Positions 6,450-53,244 of a DNA stretch of 64,000 nt are shown here, in pieces. Within the stretch, counting starts at the first letter, position 1, and every line of letters starts with the position of its first letter. A program made the position numbers and the translations under genes. The notes under the pieces were generated by a model. The model ran no database searches, was not told the DNA's origin, and saw only the letters and a list, made by a program, of their open reading frames with translations. This DNA comes from a virus (lineage: Duplodnaviria; Caudoviricetes). The stretch is from positions 4,488 through 68,487 of IMG/VR virus record IMGVR_UViG_2767802007_000002; one strand, given 5' to 3'.

Positions 6450-6450
6450 C

Positions 6451-7044: not shown

Positions 7045-7045
7045 C

Positions 7046-26495: not shown

Positions 26496-27410
26496 TCAGC
26501 CGACGAGGATGCTGGCGCCGTTGGGGTGGCCGTAGGCCCAGCCGCGGCGGGCGCGCATCTTGAGGATTGACTCGTCGGTCAAAGCGCTGAGTCCATCCCT
26601 GCCGTCGATGAACACGGACTCCGGGCCGCTCCTCACGCCGAGGAGCATGAGCTCGGGGTTGACGAACGCCATGATCGGCCGACCGGTGGGGCTGGGCGTG
26701 GCGGTCGCGGAGATCTTCGCGCCGAGGCTCCAGCGGACGGGCACGCTGAAGATGGTGTCGGGGGTACCGGCGCCGTTCTCGTTGAAGATCGGACGGTTCT
26801 GGGAGTCGAGGACGCCACGCAGCGACTTGCGGAAGGCCGGGTGGGCGATGGCGTACATCGACCCGGGGTCGAAGTAGTCGCCGGATTCCACGGCGCCGAT
26901 CGCGGTGGAGAACTCGCTGTAGGTCGGCGCGCCCGAGCTGGAGGCAGTGACGATGTTCGTGCCGCCCGTGTAGCCGAGGGTGCCGTCGGTCGTGTTCAGC
27001 AGCTGGTACAGGCTGGTGAACGGGACGGTGGTGCCGTTGCTGGCCGCGGACACGGCGAGCGTCGCGTTGTCGATCATCTTGGCGTAGGACTTCGACCAGC
27101 CCAGCATCTTGGCCTCGATGACGTTGGCCACCGAGTCGTCGATGTCCTCTTCCGCCAGCCTGGCCGCCTTGCCGAACTTCACCGCCGACAGCAGGACTTC
27201 GTCGTTGAGGCTGGTGTCCTCACCGTAGGCGCCGCCCTTGGCGACCACGTCGACGCCCATCCCGGCGGTGCGGGGGACGTGCTTGGTGTCGGAGCCCATG
27301 GGGATGCGGGAGGCGAGGGCTTCGACGGCGGAGATTTGGTTGATGCTCTGGATGACCCGGCTGGTCTCGTACTCTTCCGGGATCCAGGCCTCAAGCGTAT
27401 TGCGTGCCAC
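26496..27410 (-). CDS. Major capsid protein (HK97 fold)
   Basis: 304 aa; WIPEEY, VAKGGAY, LAEEDIDDS, LRGVLDSQNRPIF, KMRARRG. Confidence 0.88.
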   Translation of the reverse strand: MARNTLEAWIPEEYETSRVIQSINQISAVEALASRIPMGSDTKHVPRTAGMGVDVVAKGGAYGEDTSLNDEVLLSAVKFGKAARLAEEDIDDSVANVIEAKMLGWSKSYAKMIDNATLAVSAASNGTTVPFTSLYQLLNTTDGTLGYTGGTNIVTASSSGAPTYSEFSTAIGAVESGDYFDPGSMYAIAHPAFRKSLRGVLDSQNRPIFNENGAGTPDTIFSVPVRWSLGAKISATATPSPTGRPIMAFVNPELMLLGVRSGPESVFIDGRDGLSALTDESILKMRARRGWAYGHPNGASILVG

Positions 27411-28725: not shown

Positions 28726-29742
28726 TCAGGCGGCGGCCGGGAAGCGGCCGGTTCGGAGTGCGGCGCGGGCGCGGGCCTCGACCGCAGGCAGAAGGTCATC
28801 AACGGCCCGCAGCAGCTCCCGCGCGGCACGCAGCCGGACAGCACGAGACTCCGACGGCCGGCCGACGCCGTAGCCGATGGACCGCTCGGCCTCGCGACGC
28901 AGCGCCTCCGGGAACGGTGTCCCGGACGTCTTCCACGCGTCACTCCAGGGAACGGCGCGGCAGCGGCAGTGCGCGTGCAGCGGCGGCCCGTCCACCCCGG
29001 CCGCCCGGGCGCGGCGCTGGCGCGGGTCCCAGGACAGGCCGCCCGGGAACGGCTCGCCCGGCGGGGCGGTCCGGCCGGTGTAGGCCAGGCAGCGCACGCA
29101 CGCATCGGCCTCCGACACCCACACCCGCAGCGGCGCGGTCGCGCGGACGACGACGTCCAGCCCTTGGTGGACCGCGGTATTGATGACCCACGCGATGTGC
29201 GCACGCACGGCCGGCAGGACGGCCCGGGCGGCGCCGAGCCCGGCCAGCATGTGCGACCACCGCGACACCCGGTCCGGGTGCAGCAGGAACAGGGCGCGGT
29301 CGCGGCGTTCGGCCACCATGTCCCGGACGCGGCGCGCCTCAGCCAGCAGGACGCGACTCACCGACGGCACGCGCGGCTCCCTGCGCCCCCGGCCGGACGC
29401 GGCACGCACGAACTCGGAGCCCTGCCGCACCCCCATGACCAGCGCGGGCCCCAGCCCATCGGCCAGCACCGCGGGCGCCCGACGCGCGAGGTCATCCAGC
29501 AGCCGGACGGCGGCGGCCCGGGTCGCTGCAACGATGCGGCGCAGTACGTCCCCGGGCGCGGCCGGCTGGTTCGGGCCGCCGTACGCGCGGGTCCACGCGG
29601 TGAGCGTGCGGCGAACGAGCTCCTCGAACGCGCGGTCCATCCCGAGCAGGGCCCGCCCGGCGAGCCGGTTCTCCAGGTCGACGACCTCGCCCGTGTGGTC
29701 GTCCTGCACCAGGCGGGTGAGGTGCTCGCTGGAGTACGGCAT
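28726..29742 (-). CDS. Minor head morphogenesis protein (SPP1 gp7 / Mu F-like)
   Basis: WVSEADACVRC...PPLHAHCRC; follows portal. Confidence 0.8.
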   Translation of the reverse strand: MPYSSEHLTRLVQDDHTGEVVDLENRLAGRALLGMDRAFEELVRRTLTAWTRAYGGPNQPAAPGDVLRRIVAATRAAAVRLLDDLARRAPAVLADGLGPALVMGVRQGSEFVRAASGRGRREPRVPSVSRVLLAEARRVRDMVAERRDRALFLLHPDRVSRWSHMLAGLGAARAVLPAVRAHIAWVINTAVHQGLDVVVRATAPLRVWVSEADACVRCLAYTGRTAPPGEPFPGGLSWDPRQRRARAAGVDGPPLHAHCRCRAVPWSDAWKTSGTPFPEALRREAERSIGYGVGRPSESRAVRLRAARELLRAVDDLLPAVEARARAALRTGRFPAAA

Positions 29743-31268
29743 CAGCTCTCCTCCTGTGCCTGCGCGAGCGCTTCAAGGTCGTCGATGGCGCCGGTCATGA
29801 GCGCGGTGACCTGCTCGGAGGTGATGACGCCGAGCGCGGCCGCGGAGCCGAGCTTCTGCGCGGAGTCGGCGAGCGATGCGAGGACGTCGACGCGGCGCTG
29901 CAGCTCGGCGTCGTCCGTACCCGAGAGCCACGCATCAACCTGCTCAGCGCGGTAGCCGGCCTCCATCAGCGCCTGGCGCCGAGGTACGCCGGCCTCGATC
30001 TTCGCCTTGACGGTCTGCCAGCCCTCGGCCGTCGACACGGACCGGGCCGGTACCCAGTCGACGTTGACGACCGGGTCCTCGATGCCGAGGCGGCGCAACG
30101 CGAAAACGAACGCCTCATGCAGGGCGGCGCCGTAGCTGGTCTGCCGGTTCTCCACCTTCGAGATGAACGGTCCGTCCTCCTCGCGGTAGGACTCGCCTGA
30201 GCGCTGGCTCGACTGGGGGTCGAACAGGCGCAGCGGTGTCTCGGTGATCTGGGCCATGGCCCGCACGTTGAACATGATCGGGTCGAGGAACACCTGCGGG
30301 TTCGCGGCGTCGAACTGACCGACGGCCTTGTAGCCGCGCAGCAGCCACATCTCGCCCGGCCCGGCCTTCAAGCTGCTGTCCTCCCCCGAGTCGCTCGGCC
30401 CGAGGCCCTTCTCGTTGAGGGGCCAGTCGCCGTCATCCCAGTCACCGGGCTCAAGGTCGCTGGTGTCGGTAGTGGAGGTCTCGGTCAAGGCGTAGCGCTG
30501 CGGTGCGCCCTGGTAGTCGACCGTCCCCATGTGCGTGGCCTGCAATTTGGTGATCGCGTTCTGCGGGCCGTACGCGCCATAGTGCTCGGGCACGCCGTAG
30601 GGGCGATCGTTGCGGAAGTGGAAGACCGGCTGTTCGTTCCAGTCGTGCTCGATCGACCAGGACTCGGGGTCCTCTGGGTCGGCCGGCCAGGGGTGCCAGT
30701 CGCCGGCCTGGTCACCGCGCGAGTTCTCCCCGGTGGTCCAGCGTTCGGTGCGGTCGTCGTACAGCAGCTCGACACGCTCGTACCGGCCTTCGCACCACTT
30801 CTTGATGGTGAAATTCTTCTTGCGCGGGTTGTCCTCGCTGTAGAAGACGCGCACCGTCTGCGGAGAGTTGTAGAACATCTCGACCCGGACGACGTTGCCT
30901 TGGGCGTCCTCGACGGGCAGCACCATGAGGTAGGCGTCGCCGTACTCGCCGGCCCGGCGGAACAGATCCGGCAACTCGATGTTGAGCTGGTTGTCCTGCC
31001 AGATCTTCGAGATGAGGGTGTTGGTGTCCTCGTCGGGGCTGGTGATCGAGGCGACCTTCAGCCGGTTGGTGATGGCGTTCACCGGCGTTTTGGCGAAGTT
31101 GAGGTCGAAGTCGATGCGGTGAGCGGCGAGGGCACGGCGCAGGCGGACGCTGGTGAAAACCTCGGGGACCTTGCCGTCGTAGTACAGGGCGGCCTGGTCG
31201 TAGCCGGGACGGGAGCCTTCCAGCTCTTCGATTCCGAGCATGAGGTCGGCGAGCGACTCGTCATCCAA
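29742..31268 (-). CDS. Portal protein (SPP1 gp6-like)
   Basis: 508 aa after terminase; YYDGK, NFAKTPVN, AGEYGDAY, AMAQITETP, VNVDW. Confidence 0.9.
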   Translation of the reverse strand: MDDESLADLMLGIEELEGSRPGYDQAALYYDGKVPEVFTSVRLRRALAAHRIDFDLNFAKTPVNAITNRLKVASITSPDEDTNTLISKIWQDNQLNIELPDLFRRAGEYGDAYLMVLPVEDAQGNVVRVEMFYNSPQTVRVFYSEDNPRKKNFTIKKWCEGRYERVELLYDDRTERWTTGENSRGDQAGDWHPWPADPEDPESWSIEHDWNEQPVFHFRNDRPYGVPEHYGAYGPQNAITKLQATHMGTVDYQGAPQRYALTETSTTDTSDLEPGDWDDGDWPLNEKGLGPSDSGEDSSLKAGPGEMWLLRGYKAVGQFDAANPQVFLDPIMFNVRAMAQITETPLRLFDPQSSQRSGESYREEDGPFISKVENRQTSYGAALHEAFVFALRRLGIEDPVVNVDWVPARSVSTAEGWQTVKAKIEAGVPRRQALMEAGYRAEQVDAWLSGTDDAELQRRVDVLASLADSAQKLGSAAALGVITSEQVTALMTGAIDDLEALAQAQEES

Positions 31269-31367: not shown

Positions 31368-32975
31368 CTACGCGTACGCCGCCGTACGAGCAGACGGCGC
31401 CGCCCGCTTCATTGGCGGCATGAACCGGCGCACCGCCGACCCCACCGCGTCGACCATGTCGTCGTTCGGGCCCTTCGGGAACGTGCACATCTGCTGCTCC
31501 AGCTCCGGCAGTCTGCGCGCGTGCAGCACCCGGCCCCGCTGATACAGGCCGAGCAGCCCCTCCGCCCGCGCGAACTTCGGCTCGTTCTGGTGGACCGTCT
31601 TCACCTTCACCGGCATGTCGTGCAGGATCGCCTGCCAGGCGTCGCCGCCCTGGTTGACCTCGATCAGGATCAGCCCGATCCGCGGGAACTCATCCAGCAG
31701 CGCGAGGACACGGTCGCGGAGCTCCGGGCCCGGCCGCACCTTCAGCGCCATCGCCGCGTGCACGGTGCATCGTTGGCGCTGGGCCGACCAGGACACGACG
31801 GCCAGTCCGGTGAAGTCGGACGCCCGCTTCGCAGTGGTGGCCGGGTCGATGCTCAGCATCATGTGGGTGATCGGGTCTGCGCCGGTAATCGGGTCAACCC
31901 GGTCGGCGATGTTCAGGGTGCCGTCGAGGCGGTCCAGCACGGCCGGCGGCTCCGGGTAGCGGAAGTCGTCCGGCGTCCACAACGCCCCGTCCGCGGCCAA
32001 GGGGTCGTTCGCCATGTTCTTCGCATAGCTGCGGGTGTGCCGGATCTCCAGCAGGTAGCCGATCGGCCACTTCGCCGGCCACATCGACCGCTCCGTGCCG
32101 TCCGGGCGCTGCACGATCGGCAGGCTGTGGTGCGCGCGGATGCCCTCGTCCCGGATCCAGTCCTCGACGTGGACGCCCTTCGCTGCCTTCACCAGCTGGT
32201 GGATGATGCTGCCCGGCATGGTGACAGTCCCGCAGATCGCGACGCGGGCGTAGATGTTCAGCGGCAGGATCGCGTCCAGCAGGGTGGTGAGCCGCTTCGC
32301 CGCGAGCTGCGCGGAGTACGACGCCTCGTCCGGCTCGATGTCGTCGCACAGCAGCAGGTCGGGGCGTTTCTCCTCGACCTTCATGCCGAGCGCGCTGGAG
32401 TCGATGCCGTGCGCGGCGAAGATGAACCCGGACTTGGCGATGTACATGCTCTGGGTGTCGGCGACGTTCTGCCCGGACGGGCGCTTGGCCGCGGTGCAAA
32501 GGTCGGGGAAGTCGCGGCGGAGCAGGGCGTTGCCGTCCAGCTCGCGTTTGAACGTGGACAGGTGCCGCTCAGCCTGCGTGGCCGCTGAGGCGAACGCGGC
32601 GGCGAAGCGGACGTGGCCGTGCGCGGCGGCCCACATCGGCAGGATGAGGAACCACCAGGTCGTTTTGCCCGTGTTGCGGGGGGCGATCCAGGCGTCGCGT
32701 TCCTCGGCTGGGCCGGCGGGCGGCCGTATCCAGCGGCGGGCGGCGCGGCACCAGGCGAGGTGGGCATCCCCGAAGCTGATCCGGCCTTCCTCGTCTTTGA
32801 GGTGGTGGCGGAGGTAGACGAGGGCGAACAGCAGTGGGTCGAGGCGGGTGAGGACGCGCCGGCCTTCGGGGTCGGCGAGGAGCCGAGGGTCGAACTGGGC
32901 GAGGTAGGCGTCCAGGTCGAAGGTCTCGGCGTCCAGGCCGCGGAGGTAGCCGGGTGTGCGGGTTGCGGTCGTCAC
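31368..32975 (-). CDS. Terminase large subunit
   Basis: Walker A APRNTGKTT, Walker B LLLCDDIE, nuclease LSIDPA...DFTG...NDDMVDA. Confidence 0.92.
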   Translation of the reverse strand: MTTATRTPGYLRGLDAETFDLDAYLAQFDPRLLADPEGRRVLTRLDPLLFALVYLRHHLKDEEGRISFGDAHLAWCRAARRWIRPPAGPAEERDAWIAPRNTGKTTWWFLILPMWAAAHGHVRFAAAFASAATQAERHLSTFKRELDGNALLRRDFPDLCTAAKRPSGQNVADTQSMYIAKSGFIFAAHGIDSSALGMKVEEKRPDLLLCDDIEPDEASYSAQLAAKRLTTLLDAILPLNIYARVAICGTVTMPGSIIHQLVKAAKGVHVEDWIRDEGIRAHHSLPIVQRPDGTERSMWPAKWPIGYLLEIRHTRSYAKNMANDPLAADGALWTPDDFRYPEPPAVLDRLDGTLNIADRVDPITGADPITHMMLSIDPATTAKRASDFTGLAVVSWSAQRQRCTVHAAMALKVRPGPELRDRVLALLDEFPRIGLILIEVNQGGDAWQAILHDMPVKVKTVHQNEPKFARAEGLLGLYQRGRVLHARRLPELEQQMCTFPKGPNDDMVDAVGSAVRRFMPPMKRAAPSARTAAYA

Positions 32976-35175: not shown

Positions 35176-35520
35176 TCAGGCGGCGGGCCGGTACGGGCCC
35201 CAGCTGCCGGTCATCACAGGGTTGTGCGGCCGGTCCTCGACCTCCAGGGGCAGGTCGGACCAGACGAGGTGGGTGATGCCGAGGTCGATGGCGGCGGCCA
35301 CGCGGTGGTGCCCGTCGACCAGCCAGGGCTGCCCGTTGTGGGTGCGGATCATGATGGGGAGTGCGATGCCGTCCTGGCGGATCTCGTCCAGCAGCTCGGC
35401 ATAGTGCTCGGAGCGCCGCTTGTGGTCGAGGACGTCCTGGACGGTGATGCAGTCGGGGGTGTCGTCGTCGTCCGGGGTGAGCATGTCCAGGACGGTCACG
35501 GTGGGGATGATGCCGAGCAT
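35176..35520 (-). CDS. Stand-alone ParB/sulfiredoxin-like domain protein
   Basis: LLDEIRQDGIALPIMI...LVDGHHRVAAAIDLG. Confidence 0.8.
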   Translation of the reverse strand: MLGIIPTVTVLDMLTPDDDDTPDCITVQDVLDHKRRSEHYAELLDEIRQDGIALPIMIRTHNGQPWLVDGHHRVAAAIDLGITHLVWSDLPLEVEDRPHNPVMTGSWGPYRPAA

Positions 35521-35856: not shown

Positions 35857-36195
35857 CTAGGCGGCGAGGGCGAGGCGCGCGGCGGCGGTGCGGTACGCGG
35901 GCTTGCGGGGCCGGTAGATGACGGCGATCGCGGCGACCTCGGCCGGGGTGTAGCGGGTGCAGGCGCGGGCGCGGCCGTGGGTGTAGGAGACGGAGGGGGT
36001 GCCGGTGACGCCGGCCTTGGTCGCGTTCTTCCGGAGGGAGCCGGCGACCGAGCGGGCCTCGCGCGGGGCGAGGCCGGCGGCGATGCAGTGGGTGGCGAGG
36101 GTGCCGGTGCCGGTGCGGCGGATGCGGCCCTGGGCGGAGGTCTGGGTGCGGCGGGCGCGGAGGGTGGCGCGGCGGGTGCGGTTGGCGGCGATCAT
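35857..36195 (-). CDS. Basic hypothetical protein ending RLALAA
   Basis: GAGGGGG RBS, ATG 36195. Confidence 0.65.
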   Translation of the reverse strand: MIAANRTRRATLRARRTQTSAQGRIRRTGTGTLATHCIAAGLAPREARSVAGSLRKNATKAGVTGTPSVSYTHGRARACTRYTPAEVAAIAVIYRPRKPAYRTAAARLALAA

Positions 36196-36213
36196 TTGGT
36201 CCCCCTCGTTCTT

Positions 36214-36285
36214 GGTGTACGTACACCGTAGCGCGAGGTGTACGTACACCGCAAGGGGTTCGGGCTATCCAGCTGTACGTACACC
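36214..36285. promoter_or_regulatory. Three palindromic operators G(G/C)TGTACGTACACC in a divergent promoter region
   Basis: Perfect GGTGTACGTACACC at 36214-36227 and 36237-36250; GCTGTACGTACACC at 36272-36285. Confidence 0.75.
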
Positions 36286-36301
36286 CGGTACCGTGGGAGA
36301 C

Positions 36302-36526
36302 ATGCCAAGCAGCCCGAAGACCCAGCACCGCTCAGTCCGCATCAGCGACGACGACTGGGCCGACCTGCTCGCCGCCGCGAAAACCCAAGGCAGCGACCGG
36401 GGCACAGTCATCAAGGACCTCGTCGCCTGGTATCTACGCCGGCCCGGCGCGACCATGCCGAAGCGGCCCGAGTCGGGCTCCTGGAAGCCGGAGCGCCCGG
36501 CGAGCAGCGAGGAGAAGACCGCATGA
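36302..36526 (+). CDS. Ribbon-helix-helix (Arc/CopG-like) DNA-binding protein
   Basis: GGGAGA RBS; QHRSVRISDDDWADLLAAAKTQGSDRGTVIKDLVAWYL. Confidence 0.75.
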   Translation: MPSSPKTQHRSVRISDDDWADLLAAAKTQGSDRGTVIKDLVAWYLRRPGATMPKRPESGSWKPERPASSEEKTA

Positions 36527-37207: not shown

Positions 37208-37687
37208 TTACTCCCCGTCCAACTGTGCAGCGAGCGCGTTGAACGCGGTCACGTACTGGTTCGCTGCCCGGAGCGTGCTCGACTCCGGCGTCACCTTGTA
37301 CGTCTGTGCCGCACCGTTCCCGAACACCACATTGATCACCGCGGCGCCCTTGTTCTTCCGACCCGTCATCGCAGCCGAGGCTCCCAACGTCGCCGCGCCG
37401 GCAATCAGCCGCGTGGCCGTCCATGCCTTGTGCGCGCCTGCGTCGATGAACTCAGCCTGCCCTCCGCGGATCGGGCCCAGGCTGGTCTGCCCCATCTTGG
37501 AGGCCGGCCAAGGACGCATGAGGGCTGCCTGGTTCATGGTCACCTCGGCGGGGTGGTCTTCTCGCCAGATCTTCAGTTCGAGGCGTTCCTCCGCGCGCTG
37601 GTCGGCTGCTGCCTGTCGCTGCTTGCGGCGTTCCTCGCGGGCGGCGGCGCGCTCGGCTGCCTTCTCTGGGTCTCGGTTGAACAGCAT
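37208..37687 (-). CDS. Hypothetical protein, coiled coil plus hydrophobic hairpin
   Basis: 159 aa; WTATRLIAGAATLGASAAMTGRKNK. Confidence 0.65.
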   Translation of the reverse strand: MLFNRDPEKAAERAAAREERRKQRQAAADQRAEERLELKIWREDHPAEVTMNQAALMRPWPASKMGQTSLGPIRGGQAEFIDAGAHKAWTATRLIAGAATLGASAAMTGRKNKGAAVINVVFGNGAAQTYKVTPESSTLRAANQYVTAFNALAAQLDGE

Positions 37688-37835: not shown

Positions 37836-38288
37836 TCAGCCGTGGTGCGTGATGTCAGTACGGCCGAACCACTTCTGCGTCACGTGCGTCTCGTGGCGGA
37901 CGTTCACCACGCTCCGCCCGCGCACACTGCCGGCAGCGAGGAGCAGCGCGGCCAGCATTGCCAGCCCGCTCGTCCCCATAAGGGCCACCCCGGCGGCCAG
38001 CTCGTGCAGCCCGAAGCCGACCCCCGCGCCCGCTGCGCCGACACCGACGCCGCCAGCGAGCATGCGCTGTGCGAGCGGATCGAAAAGCGGCTGCGGGGTC
38101 AAGTCCCGCGGTGCCGGCATGGGCATCGGCTGAACGTACTCCCTCAGCACCGGCACCATCACGTTCGGGTCGGCCCCGGACGGCACCCAGGCAACCGCGG
38201 GCCGTTCGGCGCGCAGCTCGACGCCAGCGGGGTGGACGGGACGCTGCTCGACGGCTGGGGCGTAGCGCTGGTAGGGCTCGGACAGCAT
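37836..38288 (-). CDS. Spread (Spd)-type membrane protein downstream of traB
   Basis: ATG overlaps traB stop; Gly/Ala TM segments GGVGVGAAGAGVGFG...; VRHETHVTQKWFG tail. Confidence 0.6.
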   Translation of the reverse strand: MLSEPYQRYAPAVEQRPVHPAGVELRAERPAVAWVPSGADPNVMVPVLREYVQPMPMPAPRDLTPQPLFDPLAQRMLAGGVGVGAAGAGVGFGLHELAAGVALMGTSGLAMLAALLLAAGSVRGRSVVNVRHETHVTQKWFGRTDITHHG

Positions 38289-40384
38289 CACGACTCCTGA
38301 GAGCGGTCGGGGCGGACGGCGTAACGGCCGAAGCGGGGCTTGTGGACGCGCGAGTCCGCGGCGAGCCACCGGCCGATCGTGGCCGCGTGCGGGACTTCCT
38401 GGGCGGGATGCTGGCGGGCGAAGCAGTCACGGATCGCCTCAGGACCGATGCCGTCTGGGCCAGCCTTCTCGACGATGCGGTAGACCATCTCGCGGCGCGG
38501 GTCACCGTCTTCCCCGCCCGGCGCGGGCTGCTGGGGATCGACAGTGGGCGGCTTCCAAGTCAGGCCGCCGCCGCTGAGGATCTCCTGGAACCGAGCGTCA
38601 AGGTCGCCGTCGCGGCTGCTGGTCTCGCTCATCGCCTCGTGCAGGCGGCGGCGGGCGGCCTCGGCCTGGTCGATCGTGGCCTGCGCGTCGCCGCCGGCCG
38701 GGGTGATGCCCCAGTCCGCGGTGATGCCTCGGCCGCGCGGCGTGGGAGGCTCCGGGGTGGACTCGACGACCGGCGTGGGCTCGGGGGCGGGCCCGCCGAA
38801 GAGGTGGTCGGTTCCGATCCATCGCTTCTCGTACGCTTCGCCGGCCGCGCGGCGGGACAGCTCGTCGAGCTCGGGGTGTCGCTCGGCGGTCGCGCGGACG
38901 ATGTCGAGGATCTGCGACGGGCGCATCCGGTACACCTTCATCGGGTGGACCTGGCCGTCGCCGTCCCGGACGAGTGCGCACCCCGGGTAGGGGGCGTCTT
39001 CCGCGCTGGCGTTGTGGTTGTAGCCGAAGAAGTAGTTCAGCTCGGAGTCGTCGGCGACCTTCATCCCGGCCTTGAACGTGGACTGCTTCAGGATCTGCGG
39101 GTCGGACAGGACGTCCTGGGTGGCGCGTAGACCGCTGGTGGTCTCGTTGACCGCGGCGGCGCGGGCGATCTCCAGGGTCTGGATCAAGTTGTCGGCGATC
39201 GCGCGCAGCGTGTCGTTGCGCCGGGACCGGGTGGAGAAGATCTCCGCGCCCTCGTCGTTGAAGACACGGATCTCCGGGACCTCGGCGTCCACCGGGAGTT
39301 TGTCGTCGTTGGCGGCGATCTCCCGATCCTGATAGCCGACCTTCCTCGCCTTCGCGACCCGCACTAGCGCGGTCGCCATGCCGAGCGCCTGCTCCGGGGT
39401 ATCGGCCACCCAGTCGATCGGCGGCCGGCCCGGCTTGCCCGCGGCGGCCCACGCGCGCATCCACTTCAGGGCGAGGCCCCCGCCGTTGAGGTCGATGACC
39501 CAGGTGATCGAGTCGACCATCCTGCACTGGTTGGCGATCATCACGTTGAGCAGGTTCGTCTTACCCGACCCGCGCTGCCCGACGACCAGCATGGACGCCT
39601 GCCGGTTGACCGGCCCCTCCGGCATGCCGTCGCGGAGGATGCCTAGCGGGGCGGGCGCGTTGACGGTGAGCGGCGAGTAGTCCTCCGGGTAGTACACGTC
39701 CTCGACGAGCCTGTTGACGGTCGAGACGTGGATGAGGACTGCGCCGCGGTGCGCGCCGGGCCCGACGTCGACGCCGCACCCTTCGGGGAGGCGGGCGTCC
39801 GCGGCGAGCTGCTCCTTGTAGACGGCGACGTCCTTCCAGCGGGTGCCGCCGGCGCCGCACTCGCCGTCGAGGCTGAACCCGCCGCCGCCGTCCCACACCT
39901 CGACGCCGACGATCTGCACGACCGCCCCGGCGCAGACGCGGACGATGCGGTCTTCCCACTCGTCCGCGATGGCTTTGCGCTTGCCGTCCAGGGTGGCGCG
40001 CCGGGCGGCGGCTTCCTTCTCCGCGCGTTGTTCCTCGGCTTTCTCCTCGACGTGGTGTGCACCGGCCATCGCTGCGCCGAGGCCGAGGATGCCGGCGAGG
40101 AGGCTGCCCATGCCCCACTGCGACCACGGCCCGGAGACGATGGCCCACGAGCACCAGCCGCCGGCACCCAGCCAGCCCGCGGCGCGCAGCGCGAGCGTGG
40201 CCGTGGTGACGTTGTGGCGGCGGCCGGCGATGTGGCTGCCGGCCAGGCCGGCGCCCGCGGTGAGGGCGGCCCATTCCCACGGCATGCCGAGGGTGTGGCC
40301 GGCGTAGCCGACGGCGAGCGCGGCGGCACCGGTGTTGATGGGACCGGTGATGGCGCCGTGCTTGGCGTCCCAGTCGAGGTTCAC
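38288..40384 (-). CDS. traB: TraB conjugative DNA translocase (FtsK/SpoIIIE family, Streptomyces plasmid type)
   Basis: N-terminal TM helices, Walker A GQRGSGKT, WVIDLNGG, Walker B VFNDEGAE, C-terminal winged-helix-like domain (REMVYRIV...TIGRWL). Confidence 0.85.
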   Translation of the reverse strand: MNLDWDAKHGAITGPINTGAAALAVGYAGHTLGMPWEWAALTAGAGLAGSHIAGRRHNVTTATLALRAAGWLGAGGWCSWAIVSGPWSQWGMGSLLAGILGLGAAMAGAHHVEEKAEEQRAEKEAAARRATLDGKRKAIADEWEDRIVRVCAGAVVQIVGVEVWDGGGGFSLDGECGAGGTRWKDVAVYKEQLAADARLPEGCGVDVGPGAHRGAVLIHVSTVNRLVEDVYYPEDYSPLTVNAPAPLGILRDGMPEGPVNRQASMLVVGQRGSGKTNLLNVMIANQCRMVDSITWVIDLNGGGLALKWMRAWAAAGKPGRPPIDWVADTPEQALGMATALVRVAKARKVGYQDREIAANDDKLPVDAEVPEIRVFNDEGAEIFSTRSRRNDTLRAIADNLIQTLEIARAAAVNETTSGLRATQDVLSDPQILKQSTFKAGMKVADDSELNYFFGYNHNASAEDAPYPGCALVRDGDGQVHPMKVYRMRPSQILDIVRATAERHPELDELSRRAAGEAYEKRWIGTDHLFGGPAPEPTPVVESTPEPPTPRGRGITADWGITPAGGDAQATIDQAEAARRRLHEAMSETSSRDGDLDARFQEILSGGGLTWKPPTVDPQQPAPGGEDGDPRREMVYRIVEKAGPDGIGPEAIRDCFARQHPAQEVPHAATIGRWLAADSRVHKPRFGRYAVRPDRSQES

Positions 40385-40404
40385 AGCGTGCTCCAGTCGG
40401 CGAG

Positions 40405-41877
40405 TCAGAGGTTGGCGGAGACGTCCCACATGCGCTCGCCGGTGCGGGGGTTCTCCAGGCGGGCAATGTCGACGTCGTGGAGCTGGCGGAAGGCGGGCGT
40501 GAGTTCGGTGGCGAGTTCGGCCGCCTTGAGTTGCAGACCGTGGATCTGCCGCATGATCTCCACGATGTTCGGGTGGAGCGGCCAGCTCGCGTCCGCGTTC
40601 TCGACGGTCGTGGCCAGCGCCTCGGCGTGGATACGCAGGGCCTCCTCCAGGCCGGCGAAGTCCTGGCCGACCTGCAGCATCCCTTGCGGCTGGTAGGCGG
40701 CGGCGGCGCGGGCCATCTCGGTGGCGGCGGCGACGAAGTGGTGCCCTCCGGACATGGCGGTTCCTCCTGTGAACGTGACGGGGGTGGTAGGGCGCCGCAC
40801 AGTGGCGGCGATGGACGGCTCGGGTGCGGTGTCCTGCTCGGCGCGGTTCTTACGGCGTCGCTTCCACACCGCCTTGAGTCGGTCGAGTGCGGCGGCGCGC
40901 CCGCGGCCCAGGAGGGTCCAGGCGCTGGCACCGAGCGCGCAGATGCCGTCCCACAGTGCGCCGCTGGCGCGGCGGGCCTGCTTCGCGGCGGCCTTGCTTG
41001 CGCGGGTGACGAGGGGGCGGCCGGCGCGGTAGGCGGCGCGGGCCGCCCGGTTGGCGGCGGCCTTCAGTGCGTGGCCGGTGCTGGAGGTGCGGGTCTTGGG
41101 TGTGGTGGTCTTGCCGGTGTTCTTCCCGGCGAGGTCTTTCGCGGCCTGCTTCAGCGCCTTCTTCGCGGTCTTCTGAGCCGCCTTCTGCGCGGCGGCTTCC
41201 GCCTTCTTCTGCTGCCGCTTCGTCGCGCCCGGGGTGTGGCTGCCGGAGCGGTGGCGGCCAGGTCCGCTGTGGTGGCTCGGACCGCTCTTGCGGAAGAGTC
41301 CGCCACCGGCGCGCTGACTCCCGCCACCCGCCACGCCACGGGAGCCGCCGCGCGAGCCGAGCCCGGACGAGCCGCCACCGCTACGCGACAGCGGACCGCT
41401 CGCACCGCTACCGGAGCGCGTAGCGCCACCGCTACGACCGCCACGCCAGCCGCTACCCGACCCGCTACCGCCGCGTCCGCCGCCCGTCCCGGACCCGCTA
41501 CGCAGGCCGCTACCAGCGCCGCTACGCAGGCTGGAGGCAGTAGCGCGCCCGGCTTTCACCGTGGCGCGGCGGCGGAGCGTCGCGGCCGTAGCGCCCGCCA
41601 CGATCACCGCTCCGGTAGCGGCCGCGGCGACCGGCCCGCCGACGTTGTACGCGGCGGTCGCGGCCAGGCTGGTGGCGTTGCCGGCGCCGGCGAGGACGGG
41701 GGCCATGGGCAGGCCGCGGGTGCGGCGCCGGCGGGTCTGCTGCTCGGGGAGCTCGGGGACGGGCCATTCGGAGGGCCAGGCCAGGACGGGGGACGGCCGG
41801 GCGGTGCCCTGTGTGGGGGGATCGGGTGGGGTGTCGCTGGTGGGCGTGGTCTCGGGGGCGGTCTTGGTGCGGGCCAC
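40405..41877 (-). CDS. TraA-like plasmid transfer protein (TM, Gly/Ser/Arg linker, conserved C-terminal domain)
   Basis: C-terminus GMLQVGQDFAGLEEALR...IMRQIHGLQLKAAELA...ERMWDV recalled from Streptomyces tra loci; directly upstream of traB. Confidence 0.55.
   Translation of the reverse strand: MARTKTAPETTPTSDTPPDPPTQGTARPSPVLAWPSEWPVPELPEQQTRRRRTRGLPMAPVLAGAGNATSLAATAAYNVGGPVAAAATGAVIVAGATAATLRRRATVKAGRATASSLRSGAGSGLRSGSGTGGGRGGSGSGSGWRGGRSGGATRSGSGASGPLSRSGGGSSGLGSRGGSRGVAGGGSQRAGGGLFRKSGPSHHSGPGRHRSGSHTPGATKRQQKKAEAAAQKAAQKTAKKALKQAAKDLAGKNTGKTTTPKTRTSSTGHALKAAANRAARAAYRAGRPLVTRASKAAAKQARRASGALWDGICALGASAWTLLGRGRAAALDRLKAVWKRRRKNRAEQDTAPEPSIAATVRRPTTPVTFTGGTAMSGGHHFVAAATEMARAAAAYQPQGMLQVGQDFAGLEEALRIHAEALATTVENADASWPLHPNIVEIMRQIHGLQLKAAELATELTPAFRQLHDVDIARLENPRTGERMWDVSANL
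41378..41525. repeat. Eight direct copies of CCGCTAC (candidate clt / TraB recognition repeats)
   Basis: Starts at 41378, 41405, 41429, 41450, 41462, 41495, 41507, 41519. Confidence 0.55.
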
Positions 41878-41949
41878 GACGGTGCTCCGTTCACTGCGAC
41901 TGTGACTCTGACTGCAGTCGGACTCTGATCGGGTGGGGGTTTCCGCTGC

Positions 41950-42087
41950 TCAGGGGGCGGACGGGGGGCGGGTTTGACTGCGGCTGCGGTCACGGTCACG
42001 GTCACGGCGCGCCTTGTCGTCGGCGTGAGCCATCACAAGGAAGACGATCGTGATCAAGGTCAAGGCGATGGCGGCGGCGAGAAGCAT
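41950..42087 (-). CDS. Small single-TM protein (45 aa)
   Basis: Read by hand; AAGGA RBS; MLLAAAIALTLITIVFLVMAHADDKARRDRDRDR... Confidence 0.5.
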   Translation of the reverse strand: MLLAAAIALTLITIVFLVMAHADDKARRDRDRDRSRSQTRPPSAP

Positions 42088-42102
42088 GAGGTTCCTTCGG
42101 GG

Positions 42103-43098
42103 TCAGGCGGCGCGGGGGCCGGGCAGGGCGGGGTTCTCGGCTTCGACCTGGCGGCGGATCTTCCCGGCCTGCGCCCGGCTGTTCGCCAGCCCGGCCTCGC
42201 CTAGGGCGTCGACGATCGCGCCCTCGGTGGGCCGGTGGCCGAGGTTCAGCCACAGGCCGCGGACGACGTACTGCGGGGTGCCAGGCTCGTAAGCCGGCAC
42301 CGTCTGATCGGTAGTGGCATCGGGCATGGTGGCGGGCTCGGCGGGTGGCGTAGCGGTCTTCTCTGGCGTGGTGGCACGCGACGGCTTCGGGGTGGCGGTG
42401 GCGGGCGTGGCCGGTCGTGGCGTGGCGGCGGGCGTAGTGGGCGCCGCTACAGGCGGTAGAGCGGGGGCGCTACTGAACATGGCGGCGAGCGCCGTGTTGG
42501 CGCCGTCAACGATGCGGGTGTTCTGCACGTCGGTGAGCGCGCTACCGAGGGTGGCGTCGCTATCGCCGAGGCGCCCCATGAGCCGCCACGCCGCGAGCGC
42601 CGACGCTTTTCGCACCCACTTCCAGGGGTGGCGTTCGGCGCGTGCCCGGTGGTAGGCGATCCTGCGCAGCACGGCGGCATTGCGCCGCTGCGCCTCGATG
42701 TCGACGCCGGTGCGGTGCACGACGATCCGGCGGGCGAGGAAGCTGATGCCCTCCGCCGAGGCGGTCATCGCGAGCGGGGTGAGGGCGAACACGATGGCCT
42801 CGGTTGGGGTCGGGGCGATCGCCAGGCCCATGACGGACGCGGCGGCCGGCAGGAGCCACAGTGCAGCGCGGATCGCGAGGGGCGCGGCCTGACCGAGCAT
42901 GGTGACGCCGATCATGACGAGAGCGGCGACGAGGGTTGCGCCTTCGCCAGCGGCGACGACGCCGAGGGCGGTCTCCTTGCGGTGGAGGACGGAGCCGGCG
43001 TTGGCGTAGGTGCCGATGGCGCCGCCGATACCGACGGCGATCATCGGGATGGTGGCGATGGCGAGGACGGTGATCTGTCCCTTGGTCAGCTTCTTCAC
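42103..43098 (-). CDS. spdB: SpdB-like plasmid spread membrane protein
   Basis: KLTKGQITVLAIATIPMIAVG, ALGVVAAGEGATLV, SAEGISFLARRIVVHRTGVDIEAQRRNAA, AYHRARA; four TM segments plus Pro/Thr linker. Confidence 0.7.
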   Translation of the reverse strand: MKKLTKGQITVLAIATIPMIAVGIGGAIGTYANAGSVLHRKETALGVVAAGEGATLVAALVMIGVTMLGQAAPLAIRAALWLLPAAASVMGLAIAPTPTEAIVFALTPLAMTASAEGISFLARRIVVHRTGVDIEAQRRNAAVLRRIAYHRARAERHPWKWVRKASALAAWRLMGRLGDSDATLGSALTDVQNTRIVDGANTALAAMFSSAPALPPVAAPTTPAATPRPATPATATPKPSRATTPEKTATPPAEPATMPDATTDQTVPAYEPGTPQYVVRGLWLNLGHRPTEGAIVDALGEAGLANSRAQAGKIRRQVEAENPALPGPRAA

Positions 43099-43120
43099 GG
43101 TGACGGCTCCGTGGAACGGG

Positions 43121-43330
43121 TCAGCGGTAGCGCCAGGCGAGGGCGGCCAGACCGGCGGCAATCAGGGTGGGGGCGGTGAGTTGTGCGTAGAGGCCCGCGA
43201 TGGTGCAGAGGGTGAAGCCGTAGCGGGCGACGGGCGAGCACAGGGTGTTGACGAGGGGTGAGTGGGCGCGGATGCGGTGGCGGCGGCGTCTGCATTGGGG
43301 GCAGGGCGCGCGGCGCGCGGTACGGGTCAT
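43121..43330 (-). CDS. Small membrane protein with CPQC motif
   Basis: ORF track 69 aa; GGAGGAAG RBS. Confidence 0.55.
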   Translation of the reverse strand: MTRTARRAPCPQCRRRRHRIRAHSPLVNTLCSPVARYGFTLCTIAGLYAQLTAPTLIAAGLAALAWRYR

Positions 43331-43482
43331 GGCGGGCTTCCTCGCGGGAGTGGGTGCCGGGCTGGCGGGACGAGGGGTTGGGTACCGCCAGCCCGGCGGT
43401 CGGTGGGGTGGGGGTCAGCCTTGCGGGTGGGGGCGGGGCGGGCGGATGGGGAGCGGTTCTTTGGCTCGCTCGTGCTCGGCGC

Positions 43483-43605
43483 TCATCGGCCGGCAGGGCG
43501 GGGCGTGAGCTTCCGCTCCAGGCGGGCCAGGGCCTGCTGCGCGGCGGGCGGCAGCGGCTCGGTGCGCGGGGTGGGCGGTTGGGGTTGGGGCTGGGTACGC
43601 TGCAT
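43483..43605 (-). CDS. Small leader protein (40 aa) of the tra/spd operon
   Basis: AGGAG RBS; MQRTQPQPQPP...QQALARLERKL. Confidence 0.45.
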   Translation of the reverse strand: MQRTQPQPQPPTPRTEPLPPAAQQALARLERKLTPRPAGR

Positions 43606-43714
43606 GCGGTCACTCCTGGTCACGTCAGGCGGTGGCTGGCCCGGACGGGAGTTGCACCTCCCGTCCGGGCATTTCTTGTTGAGCGAGCAGTGGTGGCTGC
43701 TGCCCAGTACCGAC

Positions 43715-43734
43715 TGTACGGGATACCCCGTACA
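43715..43734. promoter_or_regulatory. Inverted-repeat operator TGTACGGG-N4-CCCGTACA between the tra operon and a divergent HTH gene
   Basis: Seen directly. Confidence 0.6.
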
Positions 43735-43769
43735 CTGGCAATGCGGCCTGCCCACGGAAGGGACAGGGC

Positions 43770-44057
43770 ATGGAAGAGGAGGTGCAGCGCGTGCTGGACG
43801 CTCTCGCAGGTCTCTCAGAGATCGACGATCCGAAGACGCGCGCGCTCGCTGTGGCGAGGGTGCTGAAGGAGTGGCCCGAGCACAGTAAGGCGCTACGGGA
43901 GGTACGGCGGCAGGCCGTGCTGGAGCTGCTGGCGCCCGACGATGCCTCCGTCCGGAAGGTCGCGAAGGAGCTAGGCGTGTCGCCGACGACGGTCCAGGAC
44001 ATCGCGGCGGGCTACTCGCGGTCCGGGAAGGATCGCGCGAAGAAGACCGAGGAGTAG
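43770..44057 (+). CDS. HTH DNA-binding protein, putative tra-operon repressor
   Basis: C-terminal SVRKVAKELGVSPTTVQDIAAG; divergent from spd/tra. Confidence 0.75.
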   Translation: MEEEVQRVLDALAGLSEIDDPKTRALAVARVLKEWPEHSKALREVRRQAVLELLAPDDASVRKVAKELGVSPTTVQDIAAGYSRSGKDRAKKTEE

Positions 44058-44059
44058 GC

Positions 44060-44275
44060 GTGGCGAGGAACGAGTACCACTATGTGATCACCCTCCAATT
44101 CCAGAAGGAGGGCGTGCCTGGCGTCAATGCGAACACCGTCACGGGCACGGTCGCGGCCCGGCGCGGCGAGGACCGTCAGGCCCTGTATCAGCGCCTCCTG
44201 AAGCACGCCATGGCCGCTCTGGAAGCGGACAACGCGGTGACCTTGTTCTTCGACCTCGCACCCAACGGCCTGTAG
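44060..44275 (+). CDS. Hypothetical protein (71 aa)
   Basis: ORF track; GAGGAG RBS; followed by hairpin 44294-44324. Confidence 0.6.
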   Translation: MARNEYHYVITLQFQKEGVPGVNANTVTGTVAARRGEDRQALYQRLLKHAMAALEADNAVTLFFDLAPNGL

Positions 44276-51438: not shown

Positions 51439-53244
51439 TCAGGCGGCGTCGTGGGGTGCGTCATTCGTGGGGTGTGTGGGCCTGTCGGGGTGGCTGCCGG
51501 TGGCGGGGTCGCAGCCGATGTGGGTGTCGTATCCGCGGGCTGCCCAGTCGGGGTTGATGGGGTGGTCGCAGATGGTGCACAGGGGGGTGTCTTCGACCTG
51601 TGTTGCGGGGGTGGCCTTCCCCGGGCCCTTCCCCCCTTCCCCCCTCTTAGGGGGGGAAGGGGTGGGGGAACCTGGGTTCCCCGGGGGTTCCCCGGGGGTT
51701 CCCCGGGAATGTTTGACCTGGGGTTTTGCGATTCCCCCTTGATCATCGGGGGATTCCCCCGGGGAACCTGTTCCGGGGATGGTCGGGGGAACATTCGGGG
51801 GAACCTGGTTTGTCCGGTTTTTCCGCGCGCGGACAGCGGCCTCGATCCGCTCCTTCCGCACCGAGATCCCCGCGTCCGCGAGCGCCGCCCGGGTCCGCGG
51901 ATTGCCCGCATCGTCCGGCAGCCCGAGACGGTCGAGCTGCTGGATCAGCCACTCCACCGAGCCCTCCGCCGGCGCTACGTCGTCGTACTCCGCGAGGACG
52001 TGCCGGGTCTGCCCGGGCAGGTACCGGTTGCCGTCCGTGCGCGCGTACCGCATGACGGTGAAGCTGTCCGGGCCGATACCGGTGCGGGTGTGGGTGCGCT
52101 TGAGGACGAGGGTGCCGCCGCCCTGGGCGCGCAACTCCCACACGTGGTCGACGTCCTGGGTCTTCGCCGAGGAGCCGCGGGCACCGCGCTCGCCGTCCTT
52201 GCCCATGTGGTCCAGGCGGATCGAGGCGATCCCGGCTCGCTTGAGGGGCAGGAGGGTGTGCCGGTACAGGGCGAGCCAGGTGTCCGCGTCGTTCTCGGGC
52301 CCGCTGATGAACCGGGAGACGGTGTCGAGGCAGACGACTTGAGCCTCCACCTCGGCGACCATCGCGAGGAGGTCGGCGCCGCCGCCCGCGGTGTCCAGAG
52401 GGCGGATCGGGGGGAAGCTGGCGTAGGTGAGCAGGCCCATGCGGCCCGGGCCGGCGCCGTAGGAGATGAACCGTTCCTGGATGTCCTGGTGGCCGTTCTC
52501 GGCGTCGACGTACAGCACGCTGATCGGGGCCTGCGGGCGGTCTCCGAGGAAGGACTGGCCGGTGGCCATCCGCCACAGCCACTCCTGCACGAACAGGGAC
52601 TTGCCGGCCTTGCCGTCGCCGACGACGGTGATCTGCTGCCCGGGGCCCATGAGCTTCCCGGGCAGGAGTTCGACCTGGCCGAAGTCGGTGGCGAAGAACG
52701 GATCCCACTCCAGGAAGGCGCCGGTCAGGTGCGACGGGCCGTGCCCGAGGACGGTGCGGCGCTCCTCACGCTGGCGGAAGTCGTCAGCGAGCTTGGCCAG
52801 TTCCTCCGCAGTGGCGCCGGCGGCGATGGCCGCCTTGGTCGCGTTGGCCTGCTCGTCGTGGCGGCGGACGACGGCGATCTCGGCGATCCGCTCGGCGAAG
52901 GCCTGCGCCATGCTGCCAGGGATGGTCTGTGCGCCGAGGCGTTCGAGGAGGCGCCCGTTCTCGACCTCGCGGAGCCGTTTGAGTTTCTCGATCTCGGCGC
53001 GGACGGTGACCGGGTGGAGCTGCTTGTTCTCGGCGACCATGCCGCCGACGACGTCCCAGATGAGCCGGATGGCCGGCTGGTAGATGTCGTCGCGGTCGAG
53101 GACTTGTGCGCACTCCAGGTAGGCGGTGCGGTCGTGCATGATGACGCCGCCGACGTAGTTCTCGGCCTCAGCATCATGGGGGCTGGTCCGGTTGAGGCCG
53201 TCCTGGTCCGCCGTGTCGCGGGTCATGTGGCGGACGTTGTCCAC
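51439..53244 (-). CDS. Replicative helicase/initiator: DnaB N-terminal domain plus RepA-type AAA domain
   Basis: [12 protein letters not shown] (DnaB-N), Walker [38 protein letters not shown]. Confidence 0.85.
51633..51804. repeat. Iteron-like cluster (putative replication origin) inside the helicase gene
   Basis: 12-bp hairpin 51633-51662; three tandem GGGTTCCCCGG 51674-51706; inverted GGGGAAC near 51665, 51761, 51786, 51798. Confidence 0.65.

Follow-up and report, generated by a model that had tools for sequence, protein, structure and literature searches.

The Streptomyces plasmid-phage pZL12/phiZL12 (record NC_013420) was reportedly described by Zhong et al. (2010, J Bacteriol 192:3747). 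Transfer of pZL12 is reported to require a main tra gene together with two genes next to it (PMC3583192). According to the literature, TraB alone is sufficient for transfer and Spd proteins direct spreading within the mycelium; clt or TRS loci, where known, consist of clustered repeats of 8-9 bp (PMC3583192, PMC4447253). The SpdB2 homologues of the temperate phages phiC31 and VWB have been proposed to aid the spreading of phage DNA (PMC4447253). Papers on actinophages also list FtsK-like genes, with no function assigned to them. Plasmid-phage pZL12, the SpdB2 homologues of phiC31 and VWB and the annotated FtsK-like actinophage genes are known precedents for the locus described here; movement of DNA between or along hyphae in the absence of virions has been demonstrated by experiment only for pZL12.

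The window, that is, the whole stretch of 64,000 nucleotides that was analysed, consists of prophage DNA throughout. Comparison with relatives having an empty site defined attL and attR of a prophage of about 71.6 kb, inserted in a protein-coding host ORF by a recombinase of the serine type. Terminase, SPP1-type portal, capsid, tape measure and endolysin were all identified, bearing out the view of the sequence-only reading that the DNA belongs to a tailed phage; the element is a temperate tailed siphophage, integrated in the chromosome by its serine integrase. The same reading had noted the absence of an integrase, which holds for the window and not for the element, since the serine integrase lies 1.4 kb past the window end (window-equivalent 65424-67064) and att sites can be recognised. 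At 5-9.5 kb, epimerase and glycosyltransferase genes were considered as host DNA, with a left border at about 10-12 kb, and this was ruled out by the empty-site comparison.

An AICE is defined by Int, a RepSA, RepAM or Prim-Pol replication gene and Tra within 9-24 kb, usually at a tRNA gene. The present element measures 71.6 kb and has a full virion module, and no tRNA gene or tRNA attB was found in it. It is chromosomal, and of the ParAB/RepA-type functions that maintain plasmids we found a lone short protein with a ParB-N-like domain (35176-35520). Elsewhere, the host genome has classical AICE-like loci, with one FtsK-domain gene close to an integrase on C3 and a second on C8.

The tra/spd genes and the divergent HTH regulator that had been claimed for positions 37836-44057 are present there. 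Apart from the regulator, the operon lies on the minus strand throughout, in the order two small ORFs (both additions to the earlier description), SpdB-like gene, 45-aa membrane peptide, 490-aa partner, 698-aa TraB-like protein and small membrane protein. The features are as follows.

43770..44057, plus strand: divergent HTH regulator, 95 aa (Pfam HTH_23, E=2.9e-8).
43713..43741, minus strand: promoter-like site TTGCCA-17-TACAGT, overlapping the palindrome of the next line.
43716-43733: 18-bp palindrome GTACGGGATACCCCGTAC, candidate operator, occurring once in the window.
43639..43670, no strand assigned: perfect inverted repeat (stem of 13 bp) within the leader of the operon, T-rich tail on the plus strand only.
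43483..43605, minus strand: first operon gene, 40 aa, read from the sequence, its ATG preceded by AGGAG; one relative (L005) has a partial homologue.
43121..43330, minus strand: small membrane protein of 69 aa, just 5' of the SpdB-like gene; C-terminal half hydrophobic, ribosome-binding site GAGGAAG.
42103..43161, minus strand: SpdB-like integral membrane protein, likely true start a GTG near 43095, giving about 330 aa.
41950..42087, minus strand: single-TM peptide of 45 aa (hydropathy 2.81), with 78-89% identity in two relatives (L004 and L005).
40405..41877, minus strand: TraB-partner protein, 490 aa, always directly 5' of TraB.
41378..41531, minus strand: candidate clt, eight (C/G)GTAGCGG copies in the same orientation in 148 bp, within the linker-coding part of the partner gene.
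38288..40384, minus strand: TraB-like, predicted membrane-anchored dsDNA translocase of the FtsK/SpoIIIE family, 698 aa, with a C-terminal winged helix.
37836..38288, minus strand: membrane protein of 150 aa in the Spd position, TM at residues 128-146 (long-ORF numbering).
37208..37687, minus strand: downstream protein of 159 aa; codon-position GC supports a real gene.

The regulator is followed by a co-oriented ORF of 71 aa (44060-44275), and homologues with 33-41% identity occupy the same divergent position in eight of the related loci. Because the palindrome is single in the window and its sequence is not conserved in relatives, we only infer that GTACGGGATACCCCGTAC acts as an operator. The sequence of the hairpin at 43639..43670 is likewise not conserved in relatives; possible roles are a second operator or a hairpin of the leader. 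It had been taken for a terminator, which we do not uphold: with its T tail on the plus strand only and its place in the leader, it is not an evident terminator of the operon. At the other end, the ATG of the 150-aa protein and the TraB stop share one base (TGATG), and proteins with 36-79% identity stand at the same position in nine related loci. The 159-aa protein is possibly the last gene of the unit. Neither it nor the 69-aa protein matched any family.

The TraB-like protein matches phrog_31069, 'FtsK/SpoIIIE-like' (E=7e-81). Pfam FtsK_SpoIIIE (PF01580) scores it at only 17.7-19 bits, below the cut-off of 24, against 220 bits for the FtsK of its own genome; the Walker A and Walker B motifs of an FtsK/SpoIIIE motor domain are nevertheless present. 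They are VVGQRGSGKT (GxxGxGKT, residues 269-276) and D377 E378, joined by an ATQ motif at 422-424, and all three are invariant in 12 homologues. Identity is 34% over 531 aa to a plasmid protein annotated by PGAP as 'DNA translocase FtsK', 35-41% to Tra proteins of AICEs and 26% to pZL12-71 (E=3e-33). Sequence and profile searches of the PDB with this query found no FtsK. In the AlphaFold2 model, built from a 12-sequence alignment, the motor domain is poor (mean pLDDT 52), which is why the best Foldseek matches, the TcpA and FtsK motors, are only marginal (E-values 2e-3 to 7e-3). Four N-terminal helices (13-32, 37-56, 61-84 and 89-150; pLDDT 50-60) are modelled in Gly/Ala-rich, hydrophobic segments that stay below the Kyte-Doolittle threshold of 1.6. 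The model is better at residues 630-690, where helix-helix-helix-strand with pLDDT 83-90 forms a winged helix that Foldseek matches to the winged-helix proteins Fur, Zur and forkhead. Some members of the TraB clade carry Pfam FtsK_gamma (PF09397) instead.

The SpdB-like protein has at least three TM segments and matches phrog_16651 (E=1e-61). Over its N-terminal 230 aa it shares 50-74% identity with proteins encoded on Streptomyces plasmids, among them pSLE1 and 15-kb plasmids on which the homologue is annotated 'conjugal transfer protein' and adjoins GntR and kilB genes. It is, then, a polytopic membrane protein in a tra operon with homology to the SpdB-type proteins of plasmids. It did not match Pfam DUF2637; in other phage relatives, a DUF2637 membrane protein takes its position.

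One may ask whether these genes move DNA at all. An FtsK-like protein and its neighbours could manipulate septation, sporulation or segregation of the host, or exclude superinfecting phages or conjugation, while phage DNA stays where it is. Homologues of ftsK, parB and whiB have been named as candidate modulators of host development in actinophages (PMC10117723, PMC13587820), and the cassette proteins are membrane-located. Against this, the TraB-like protein groups with the Tra proteins of AICEs and plasmids and not with chromosomal FtsK (19 versus 220 bits for PF01580), it retains a sequence-reading winged helix with a clt-like repeat cluster adjoining, and its gene is accompanied by genes peculiar to transfer modules, those of the SpdB type and of the partner. 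We consider such a role very unlikely.

The partner gene directly precedes TraB in all loci of the phage and AICE clades that were examined, and also in a linear plasmid. Its product combines a single TM segment with a linker rich in Gly, Ser and Arg, a stretch rich in Lys and Ala, and a C-terminal domain of roughly 110 aa that is conserved; this domain is 44% identical to Hiyaa gp101 and weakly matches pZL12-72. No Pfam or NCBIfam family matched the protein, and for the C-terminal domain no family name came from the protein atlas. The gene that the sequence-only reading called 'traA-like' is real and constant in its place before TraB; no homology to any named TraA emerged.

The linker-coding part of this gene holds the repeats. 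The GTAGCGG cluster is the only one with at least four copies per 160 bp in the 8.9-Mb genome, where the background is 0.10 per kb per strand, and its spacing is irregular (12, 12, 33, 12, 21, 24, 27). The repeats are encoded by rare codons: in orthologues, 49 of 63 [G/R]-S-G tripeptides are written xGT-AGC-GG, as against 1 of 40 in other ORFs. GTAGCGG is the top 7-mer in relatives too, and other TraB lineages have other repeated 7-8-mers at the same place; one locus (L003) has the same recognition helix and a different top repeat. It is plausible that the eight-copy cluster is the clt of this element. Since the repeats lie in a low-complexity coding linker, they could also stem from slippage, and their conservation is partly explained by shared ancestry, as dS to the relatives is only 0.35-0.7.

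A single-protein scan of genome contigs gave only four loci, and searches of IMG/VR and genomes gave a wider set. In this set, the cassette lies upstream of the terminase in 26 IMG/VR contigs, several other prophages and a 51.8-kb circular 'plasmid'. The last (NZ_CP108596.1) is a complete phage assembled as a circular replicon; it encodes a serine recombinase and conserves the cassette order. The order is also kept in six related loci, followed by terL and portal, and in gp98-gp103 of phage Hiyaa. Further IMG/VR loci with the cassette have terminases from at least five PHROG families. Many phages whose head modules are unrelated thus carry the cassette at one common position. Outside phages, the same trio of genes is found in a linear plasmid, and the partner-TraB pair in AICEs with RepAM, Prim-Pol and Int-Tyr. 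In the TraB tree, the phage clade, spanning 47-87% identity, is separate from the AICE clade, with SH-aLRT of 100 for each. Decayed tra genes were not seen in the relatives: the motifs are invariant, no homologue has internal stops, and dN/dS of TraB is 0.17-0.26. The cassette is a genuine, selected and integral part of the phage genome, and its homologues are the units for dsDNA transfer found in Streptomyces AICEs, in plasmids and in pZL12.

These data bear on whether the cassette is a recently nested fragment of an AICE or plasmid, carried passively or as a remnant. Its gene content is like that of an AICE transfer module, and the AICE-like loci on C3 and C8 of the same genome would fit such an origin. 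A nested AICE is unlikely because there is no second integrase or Rep gene: the 72-kb element has no Int, Rep, Prim-Pol or RepAM gene besides the terminal serine integrase, and Pfam detected no Rep, Int or Xis among the ORFs that surround the module from 34.2 to 47.8 kb. Flanking direct repeats were looked for around the cassette and none were found, and its GC content and strand match those of the phage genes. The position common to phages with different head modules, the purifying selection and a phage TraB clade old enough for its range of identities likewise speak against recent insertion. This origin is largely refuted and, in our judgement, extremely improbable, in agreement with the sequence-only reading, which had argued against an inserted AICE or plasmid.

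Our preferred reading, to which we give a probability of roughly 0.6, is that the cassette is a TraB dsDNA pump that would provide virion-independent spread of the phage genome. The HTH regulator would control the promoter at about 43.7 kb and with it the small membrane proteins, the SpdB-like protein as pore or anchor, the 490-aa partner and TraB. TraB would hexamerise in the membrane, recognise the (C/G)GTAGCGG cluster as clt through its C-terminal winged helix, and pump phage DNA as unprocessed double-stranded circles, either excised or in replication, through the membranes of hyphae and the septal cross-walls. In contacted recipient hyphae, lysogeny would be restored by the integrase, or a lytic cycle would begin. 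If functional, the cassette is certain to spread the genome through the compartmentalised mycelium; spread into contacting recipient hyphae is plausible. The sequence-only reading had also proposed that defences could be bypassed and host DNA mobilised; as to the latter, the genome contains no second GTAGCGG cluster. It is tempting to go further and to regard this widespread clade of integrating temperate Streptomyces phages as conjugative prophages, in which an excised dsDNA circle would be pumped by TraB, partner and Spd proteins from the clt in the partner gene, enter neighbouring and foreign hyphae and be re-integrated by the phage integrase. We offer this fuller proposal only tentatively, with the odds somewhat against it.

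Alternatively, the cassette might serve the lytic or infection cycle only, with replicating phage DNA crossing the septa of the same mycelium for a bigger burst and no conjugation between mycelia. Hiyaa, which gave no match to a Tyr or Ser integrase, has related TraB, partner and membrane genes, as does L016, an IMG/VR genome that has direct terminal repeats and in which no integrase was matched. SpdB-like genes stand alone in other isolated Streptomyces phages, such as the group of phiSAJS1, TP1604 and YDN12, and Thoma et al. proposed a septum-crossing role for the SpdB2 homologues of phages (PMC4447253). In the loci surveyed, moreover, the cassette is always just upstream of the packaging genes, Hiyaa having its gene in the right arm instead. 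Since the cassette is also in Hiyaa, where an integrase was not found, intramycelial spread of phage DNA is an equally good reading, and transfer of lysogeny is not a universal role of the cassette. On the other hand, the nearest non-phage relatives are AICE and plasmid transfer genes with demonstrated intermycelial transfer (PMC4447253), pZL12 reportedly transfers conjugally with equivalent genes (PMC3583192), and the cassette's own divergent regulator suggests control separate from the late operon. A purely lytic role seems to us rather unlikely; it overlaps with our main explanation, and the two do not exclude each other.

Should the cassette function like its relatives in AICEs and plasmids, hyphal dsDNA transfer would be, next to virions, a second route of transmission for a sizeable group of Streptomyces phages. 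Host range, receptor-based resistance and prophage spread in soil mycelia would then have to be viewed differently, the boundary between temperate phage and AICE would blur, and 'FtsK-like' genes so far only listed for actinophages would gain a function. Were the elements conjugative prophages, the second route would be independent of both receptor and virion, with pock-like zygotic induction. Surveys of conjugative elements based on PF01580 miss the phage TraB clade because its members score below threshold and are mostly annotated 'hypothetical protein'.

How does this locus compare with the systems described? Plasmid-phage pZL12, named as a precedent by the sequence-only reading, holds up as one: a tailed phage genome whose tra locus, genes 73-72-71-70, has the same order of membrane protein (73), large protein (72), FtsK/SpoIIIE-like protein (71) and small gene, followed by terminase and portal. 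As a circular plasmid-prophage of 90 kb, pZL12 is autonomous, carries ParAB and RepA and has GntR as its regulator; the present element sits in the chromosome, where a serine integrase inserted it, its regulator is a small HTH_23 protein, and its TraB falls in another clade. Phages phiC31 and VWB are cited for SpdB2 homologues only (PMC4447253), and here there is a complete TraB/partner/Spd/regulator unit with a candidate clt. The FtsK-like proteins (phrog_31069) of phages Hiyaa, Keanu, Galactica and Spocter and of Thermobifida phage P1312 are 35-36% identical over 78% of the length. Hiyaa shares the partner C-terminal domain (gp101), a membrane protein upstream and repeated 7-mers upstream (GGTCCGG and CCGGGTC); phages of its type are 82-83 kb, with the gene among small genes of the right arm and not beside the terminase.

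AICE modules of the pMEA300/pSE211 type have a partner gene followed, as here, by an FtsK-like Tra with a putative membrane anchor, with 35-41% full-length identity, and AICEs and the pSVH1 TraB system share the small, translationally coupled membrane proteins and the divergent regulator. The candidate clt, a cluster of 7-8-bp direct repeats, resembles the known clt and TRS loci, and the element would excise and integrate in the manner of an AICE. Unlike AICEs of 9-24 kb with a tyrosine integrase, however, the present element is a 72-kb phage with a virion module and a serine integrase; it has no RepSA, RepAM or Prim-Pol, and its TraB stands in a separate clade, below the PF01580 threshold of the AICE surveys.

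The region at window positions 37836-44057 is a minus-strand operon of seven genes, faced by a divergent HTH_23 gene, in a Streptomyces-type draft genome of 8.9 Mb and roughly 70% GC, where the window corresponds to G000:C14:171819-235818. By gene calling on codon-position GC, nearly all genes of the window lie on the minus strand.

Genes of the transfer cassette (window coordinates)
43770-44057, divergent, facing the operon: HTH_23 gene
43483-43605, minus: gene 1, 40-aa ORF
43121-43330, minus: gene 2, 69-aa membrane ORF
42103 to about 43095, minus: gene 3, SpdB-like polytopic membrane protein
41950-42087, minus: gene 4, 45-aa TM peptide
40405-41877, minus: gene 5, 490-aa protein
38288-40384, minus: gene 6, 698-aa TraB-like protein
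37836-38288, minus: gene 7, 150-aa membrane protein, its ATG overlapping the TraB stop

The stretch from the HTH_23 gene to the operon holds a promoter-like site and a hairpin whose stem is 13 bp long; an 18-bp palindrome overlaps the promoter-like site. Over 230 aa, the SpdB-like protein shares 50-74% identity with Streptomyces plasmid proteins, among them those of the pZL12-like plasmid pSLE1 and of 15-kb plasmids that carry the gene next to GntR and kilB genes under the annotation "conjugal transfer protein". The TraB and SpdB-like matches therefore confirm what the sequence-only reading had seen here, namely a tra/spd operon with membrane proteins, TraB and a divergent HTH gene, with two reservations: homology support is absent for its label "traA-like" on the 490-aa gene, and the hairpin that it took for a terminator sits in the leader and is not an operon terminator.

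Two small loci separate the cassette from the packaging genes. Three copies of the 15-bp palindrome GGTGTACGTACACCG (36214-36286) adjoin an Arc-like repressor gene (35999-36526, plus strand, phrog_6506) and form with it a separate small regulatory switch. A lone 114-aa protein with a ParB-N-like domain (35176-35520; weak Pfam and PHROG matches) is encoded between the cassette and the terminase, and is 80-84% identical in L004 and L006, two loci of relatives.

The TraB-like protein matches phrog_31069, "FtsK/SpoIIIE-like protein" (E=7e-81), and a 12-member alignment shows no variation in its Walker A, Walker B and ATQ motifs. The Pfam FtsK_SpoIIIE match, at 17.7 bits, is under threshold. In the AlphaFold2 model, the C-terminal winged helix is confident and the motor domain is poorly modelled; the best Foldseek matches are the TcpA coupling protein and FtsK motors, with marginal E-values that reflect a search with this poor motor model. 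Streptomyces genomes and soil metagenomes contain hundreds of full-length homologues, 60-87% identical, most of which carry the annotation "hypothetical protein". Against close relatives, the dN/dS of TraB is 0.17-0.26, a sign of purifying selection. Decayed tra genes in relatives, which would have spoken against the sequence-only reading, were looked for, and no TraB homologue contained an internal stop.

The phage hallmark genes of the window are clear, and the limits of the element that carries them can be placed on contig C14 of the host genome.

Phage genes and attachment sites (window coordinates unless stated)
31368-32975: terminase large subunit
29742-31268: SPP1-type portal
26496-27410: capsid
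1654 aa: tape measure
2571-3851: endolysin
Other phage genes: DnaB-like helicase, RecT and YqaJ recombination genes, C5 methylase, DUF5131
C14:167286-167365, window-equivalent about -4493: attL (L002, left-end locus)
C14:238881-238960, window-equivalent about 67103: attR (L001, right-end locus)

A Pfam Recombinase match identifies a large serine recombinase of 546 aa (L001:1424-3064), 1.4 kb past the right end of the window and adjoined by a repressor-like HTH gene. Empty sites in relatives, found by searching the right flank in 30 of them, join C14:167325 straight to C14:238921; the element is therefore about 71.6 kb long (window-equivalent -4493 to about 67102) and spans the entire window, the sugar/glycosyltransferase operon included. 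Its insertion splits a host ORF, which is 627 aa long in four relatives whose site is empty. The reconstructed attP, with the palindrome ACTTTGTGG-GG-CCACAAAGT, adjoins the serine integrase gene. The sugar-modification moron (5160-9529, plus strand) consists of two NAD-dependent epimerase/dehydratase genes and a GT1 glycosyltransferase gene, and lies inside the prophage with tail genes on one side and lysis genes on the other; in L006, too, epimerase and GT genes are present, on the downstream side of the TraB cassette.

Could the cassette be an AICE nested in the prophage? Contig C14 has no tyrosine integrase anywhere, the ~71.6-kb element yielded neither a second serine recombinase nor RepAM nor any other Rep gene, and the direct repeats that a recent nested insertion might have left were sought beside the cassette and not found. 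The nested AICE was rejected on these grounds. Elsewhere in the same genome, FtsK-domain genes lie near tyrosine integrases on two other contigs (G000:C3:160116-165469 and G000:C8:225254-242276); these are probably classical AICEs coexisting with the TraB-bearing prophage.

TraB relatives with 28-85% identity are encoded by 26 IMG/VR viral contigs of 16-175 kb (23 of the 26 at 47% or more). Many loci share one order: divergent HTH, SpdB-like or DUF2637 membrane protein, 490-aa homologue, TraB and small TM protein, with terminase and portal 3-7 kb downstream. The packaging genes behind the cassette fall into five or more PHROG and Pfam types. NZ_CP108596.1 (Streptomyces sp. NBC_01177; 51,758 bp, circular), deposited as a "plasmid", is a complete tailed-phage genome with terS, terL, portal, HK97 protease, capsid, tape measure and serine recombinase genes. 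It carries the same TraB/DUF2637 cassette, with a TraB of 48% identity across 99% of the query, and represents either a prophage that has excised or is replicating, or a phage-plasmid. A DUF2637 - 690 aa - "DNA translocase FtsK" unit also occurs on a linear plasmid that is not a phage. TraB homologues at 35-41% identity occur in about 10% of the 300 Streptomyces species sampled; these homologues are assigned to classical AICEs because their flanks contain RepAM (DUF3631; 11 of 82 flank ORFs scanned), Prim-Pol (9/82) and tyrosine integrases (11/82). In a maximum-likelihood tree, phage-context TraBs form a single clade (31 rows, SH-aLRT 100) and AICE TraBs another (17 rows, SH-aLRT 100), the labels partly reflecting the collection from which the sequences came: IMG/VR for the phage TraBs, the genome sample for the AICE TraBs.

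The linker of the 490-aa gene, rich in Gly, Ser and Arg, contains eight irregularly spaced copies of (C/G)GTAGCGG in the same orientation (41378-41531), the only cluster genome-wide with at least four copies per 160 bp, the background being 0.10 per kb per strand. In six loci, 49 of 63 [G/R]-S-G tripeptides of the 490-aa gene are encoded xGT-AGC-GG, versus 1 of 40 in other ORFs; the genome seldom uses GGT and CGT, the codons found in the repeats. Among relatives with PHAATIGRWL as their TraB recognition helix, the motif ranks first of the 7-mers, and other TraB lineages have different repeated 7-8-mers in the equivalent place. Upstream of gp102, the FtsK-like gene of phage Hiyaa (NC_048139.1), GGTCCGG occurs eight times and CCGGGTC five times; both resemble the reverse complement of the pSVH1 TraB recognition sequence (TRS), GACCCGGA, CCGGGTC being that of its core. 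The (C/G)GTAGCGG cluster is a plausible, though unproven, clt. Several points caution against too firm a reading: the repeats lie in low-complexity coding sequence prone to slippage, dS to relatives is just 0.35-0.7, and NZ_CP108596.1 shares the recognition helix yet has a different top repeat.

Other repeats occur in the window. At about 51650-52050, GGGGAACC is present six times in one 400-bp scan window, which runs over the 3' (C-terminal) end of the gene for the DnaB-like helicase (51439-53244, minus); these copies are candidate origin iterons. The second-densest 7-mer cluster in the scanned 10-64 kb is CGTCGAC, with eight copies within 400 bp of a 367-aa gene (12242-13345), at about 12750-13150.

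Judged from sequence, the best-supported reading is that the cassette would be a working phage-borne apparatus for dsDNA translocation of the Streptomyces conjugation type. It may serve either the inter-mycelial transfer of excised prophage or the spread of phage DNA across cross-walls during infection. The former was the idea of the sequence-only reading, with pZL12 as precedent; for this clade, conjugation is favoured by the autonomous regulator and by a life style of integration and excision like that of AICEs. Thoma et al. (PMC4447253) put forward the latter for the SpdB2 homologues of phiC31 and VWB. The cassette is also present in Hiyaa, whose record gave no hit to a Tyr or Ser integrase domain; this favours a role independent of lysogeny. 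A manipulation of host development, speculated upon in actinophage papers (PMC10117723), is less likely, because TraB has affinity to conjugative Tra proteins and clt-like repeats are adjacent. That the translocation apparatus bypasses defences and mobilises host DNA, as had also been proposed, is unsupported speculation; no clt-like cluster was found elsewhere in the chromosome.

The interest of these observations lies chiefly in a concrete, directly testable hypothesis. In the literature searched, we found no description of a TraB clade that is coherent, specific to phages and sister to that of the AICEs, nor of a conserved cassette of four to five genes with a candidate clt beside the terminase of integrating temperate phages. 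Its components do have precedents: many actinophages have annotated FtsK-like genes, phiC31 and VWB carry SpdB2 homologues (PMC4447253), and pZL12 is reported to be a plasmid-phage with functional tra genes (PMC3583192, PMC4487206). The cassette order is kept in pZL12, as genes 73, 72, 71 and 70 followed by the terminase, and in Hiyaa gp101 corresponds to the C-terminal domain of the TraB partner (44% identity) and gp102 to TraB, with a membrane protein upstream.
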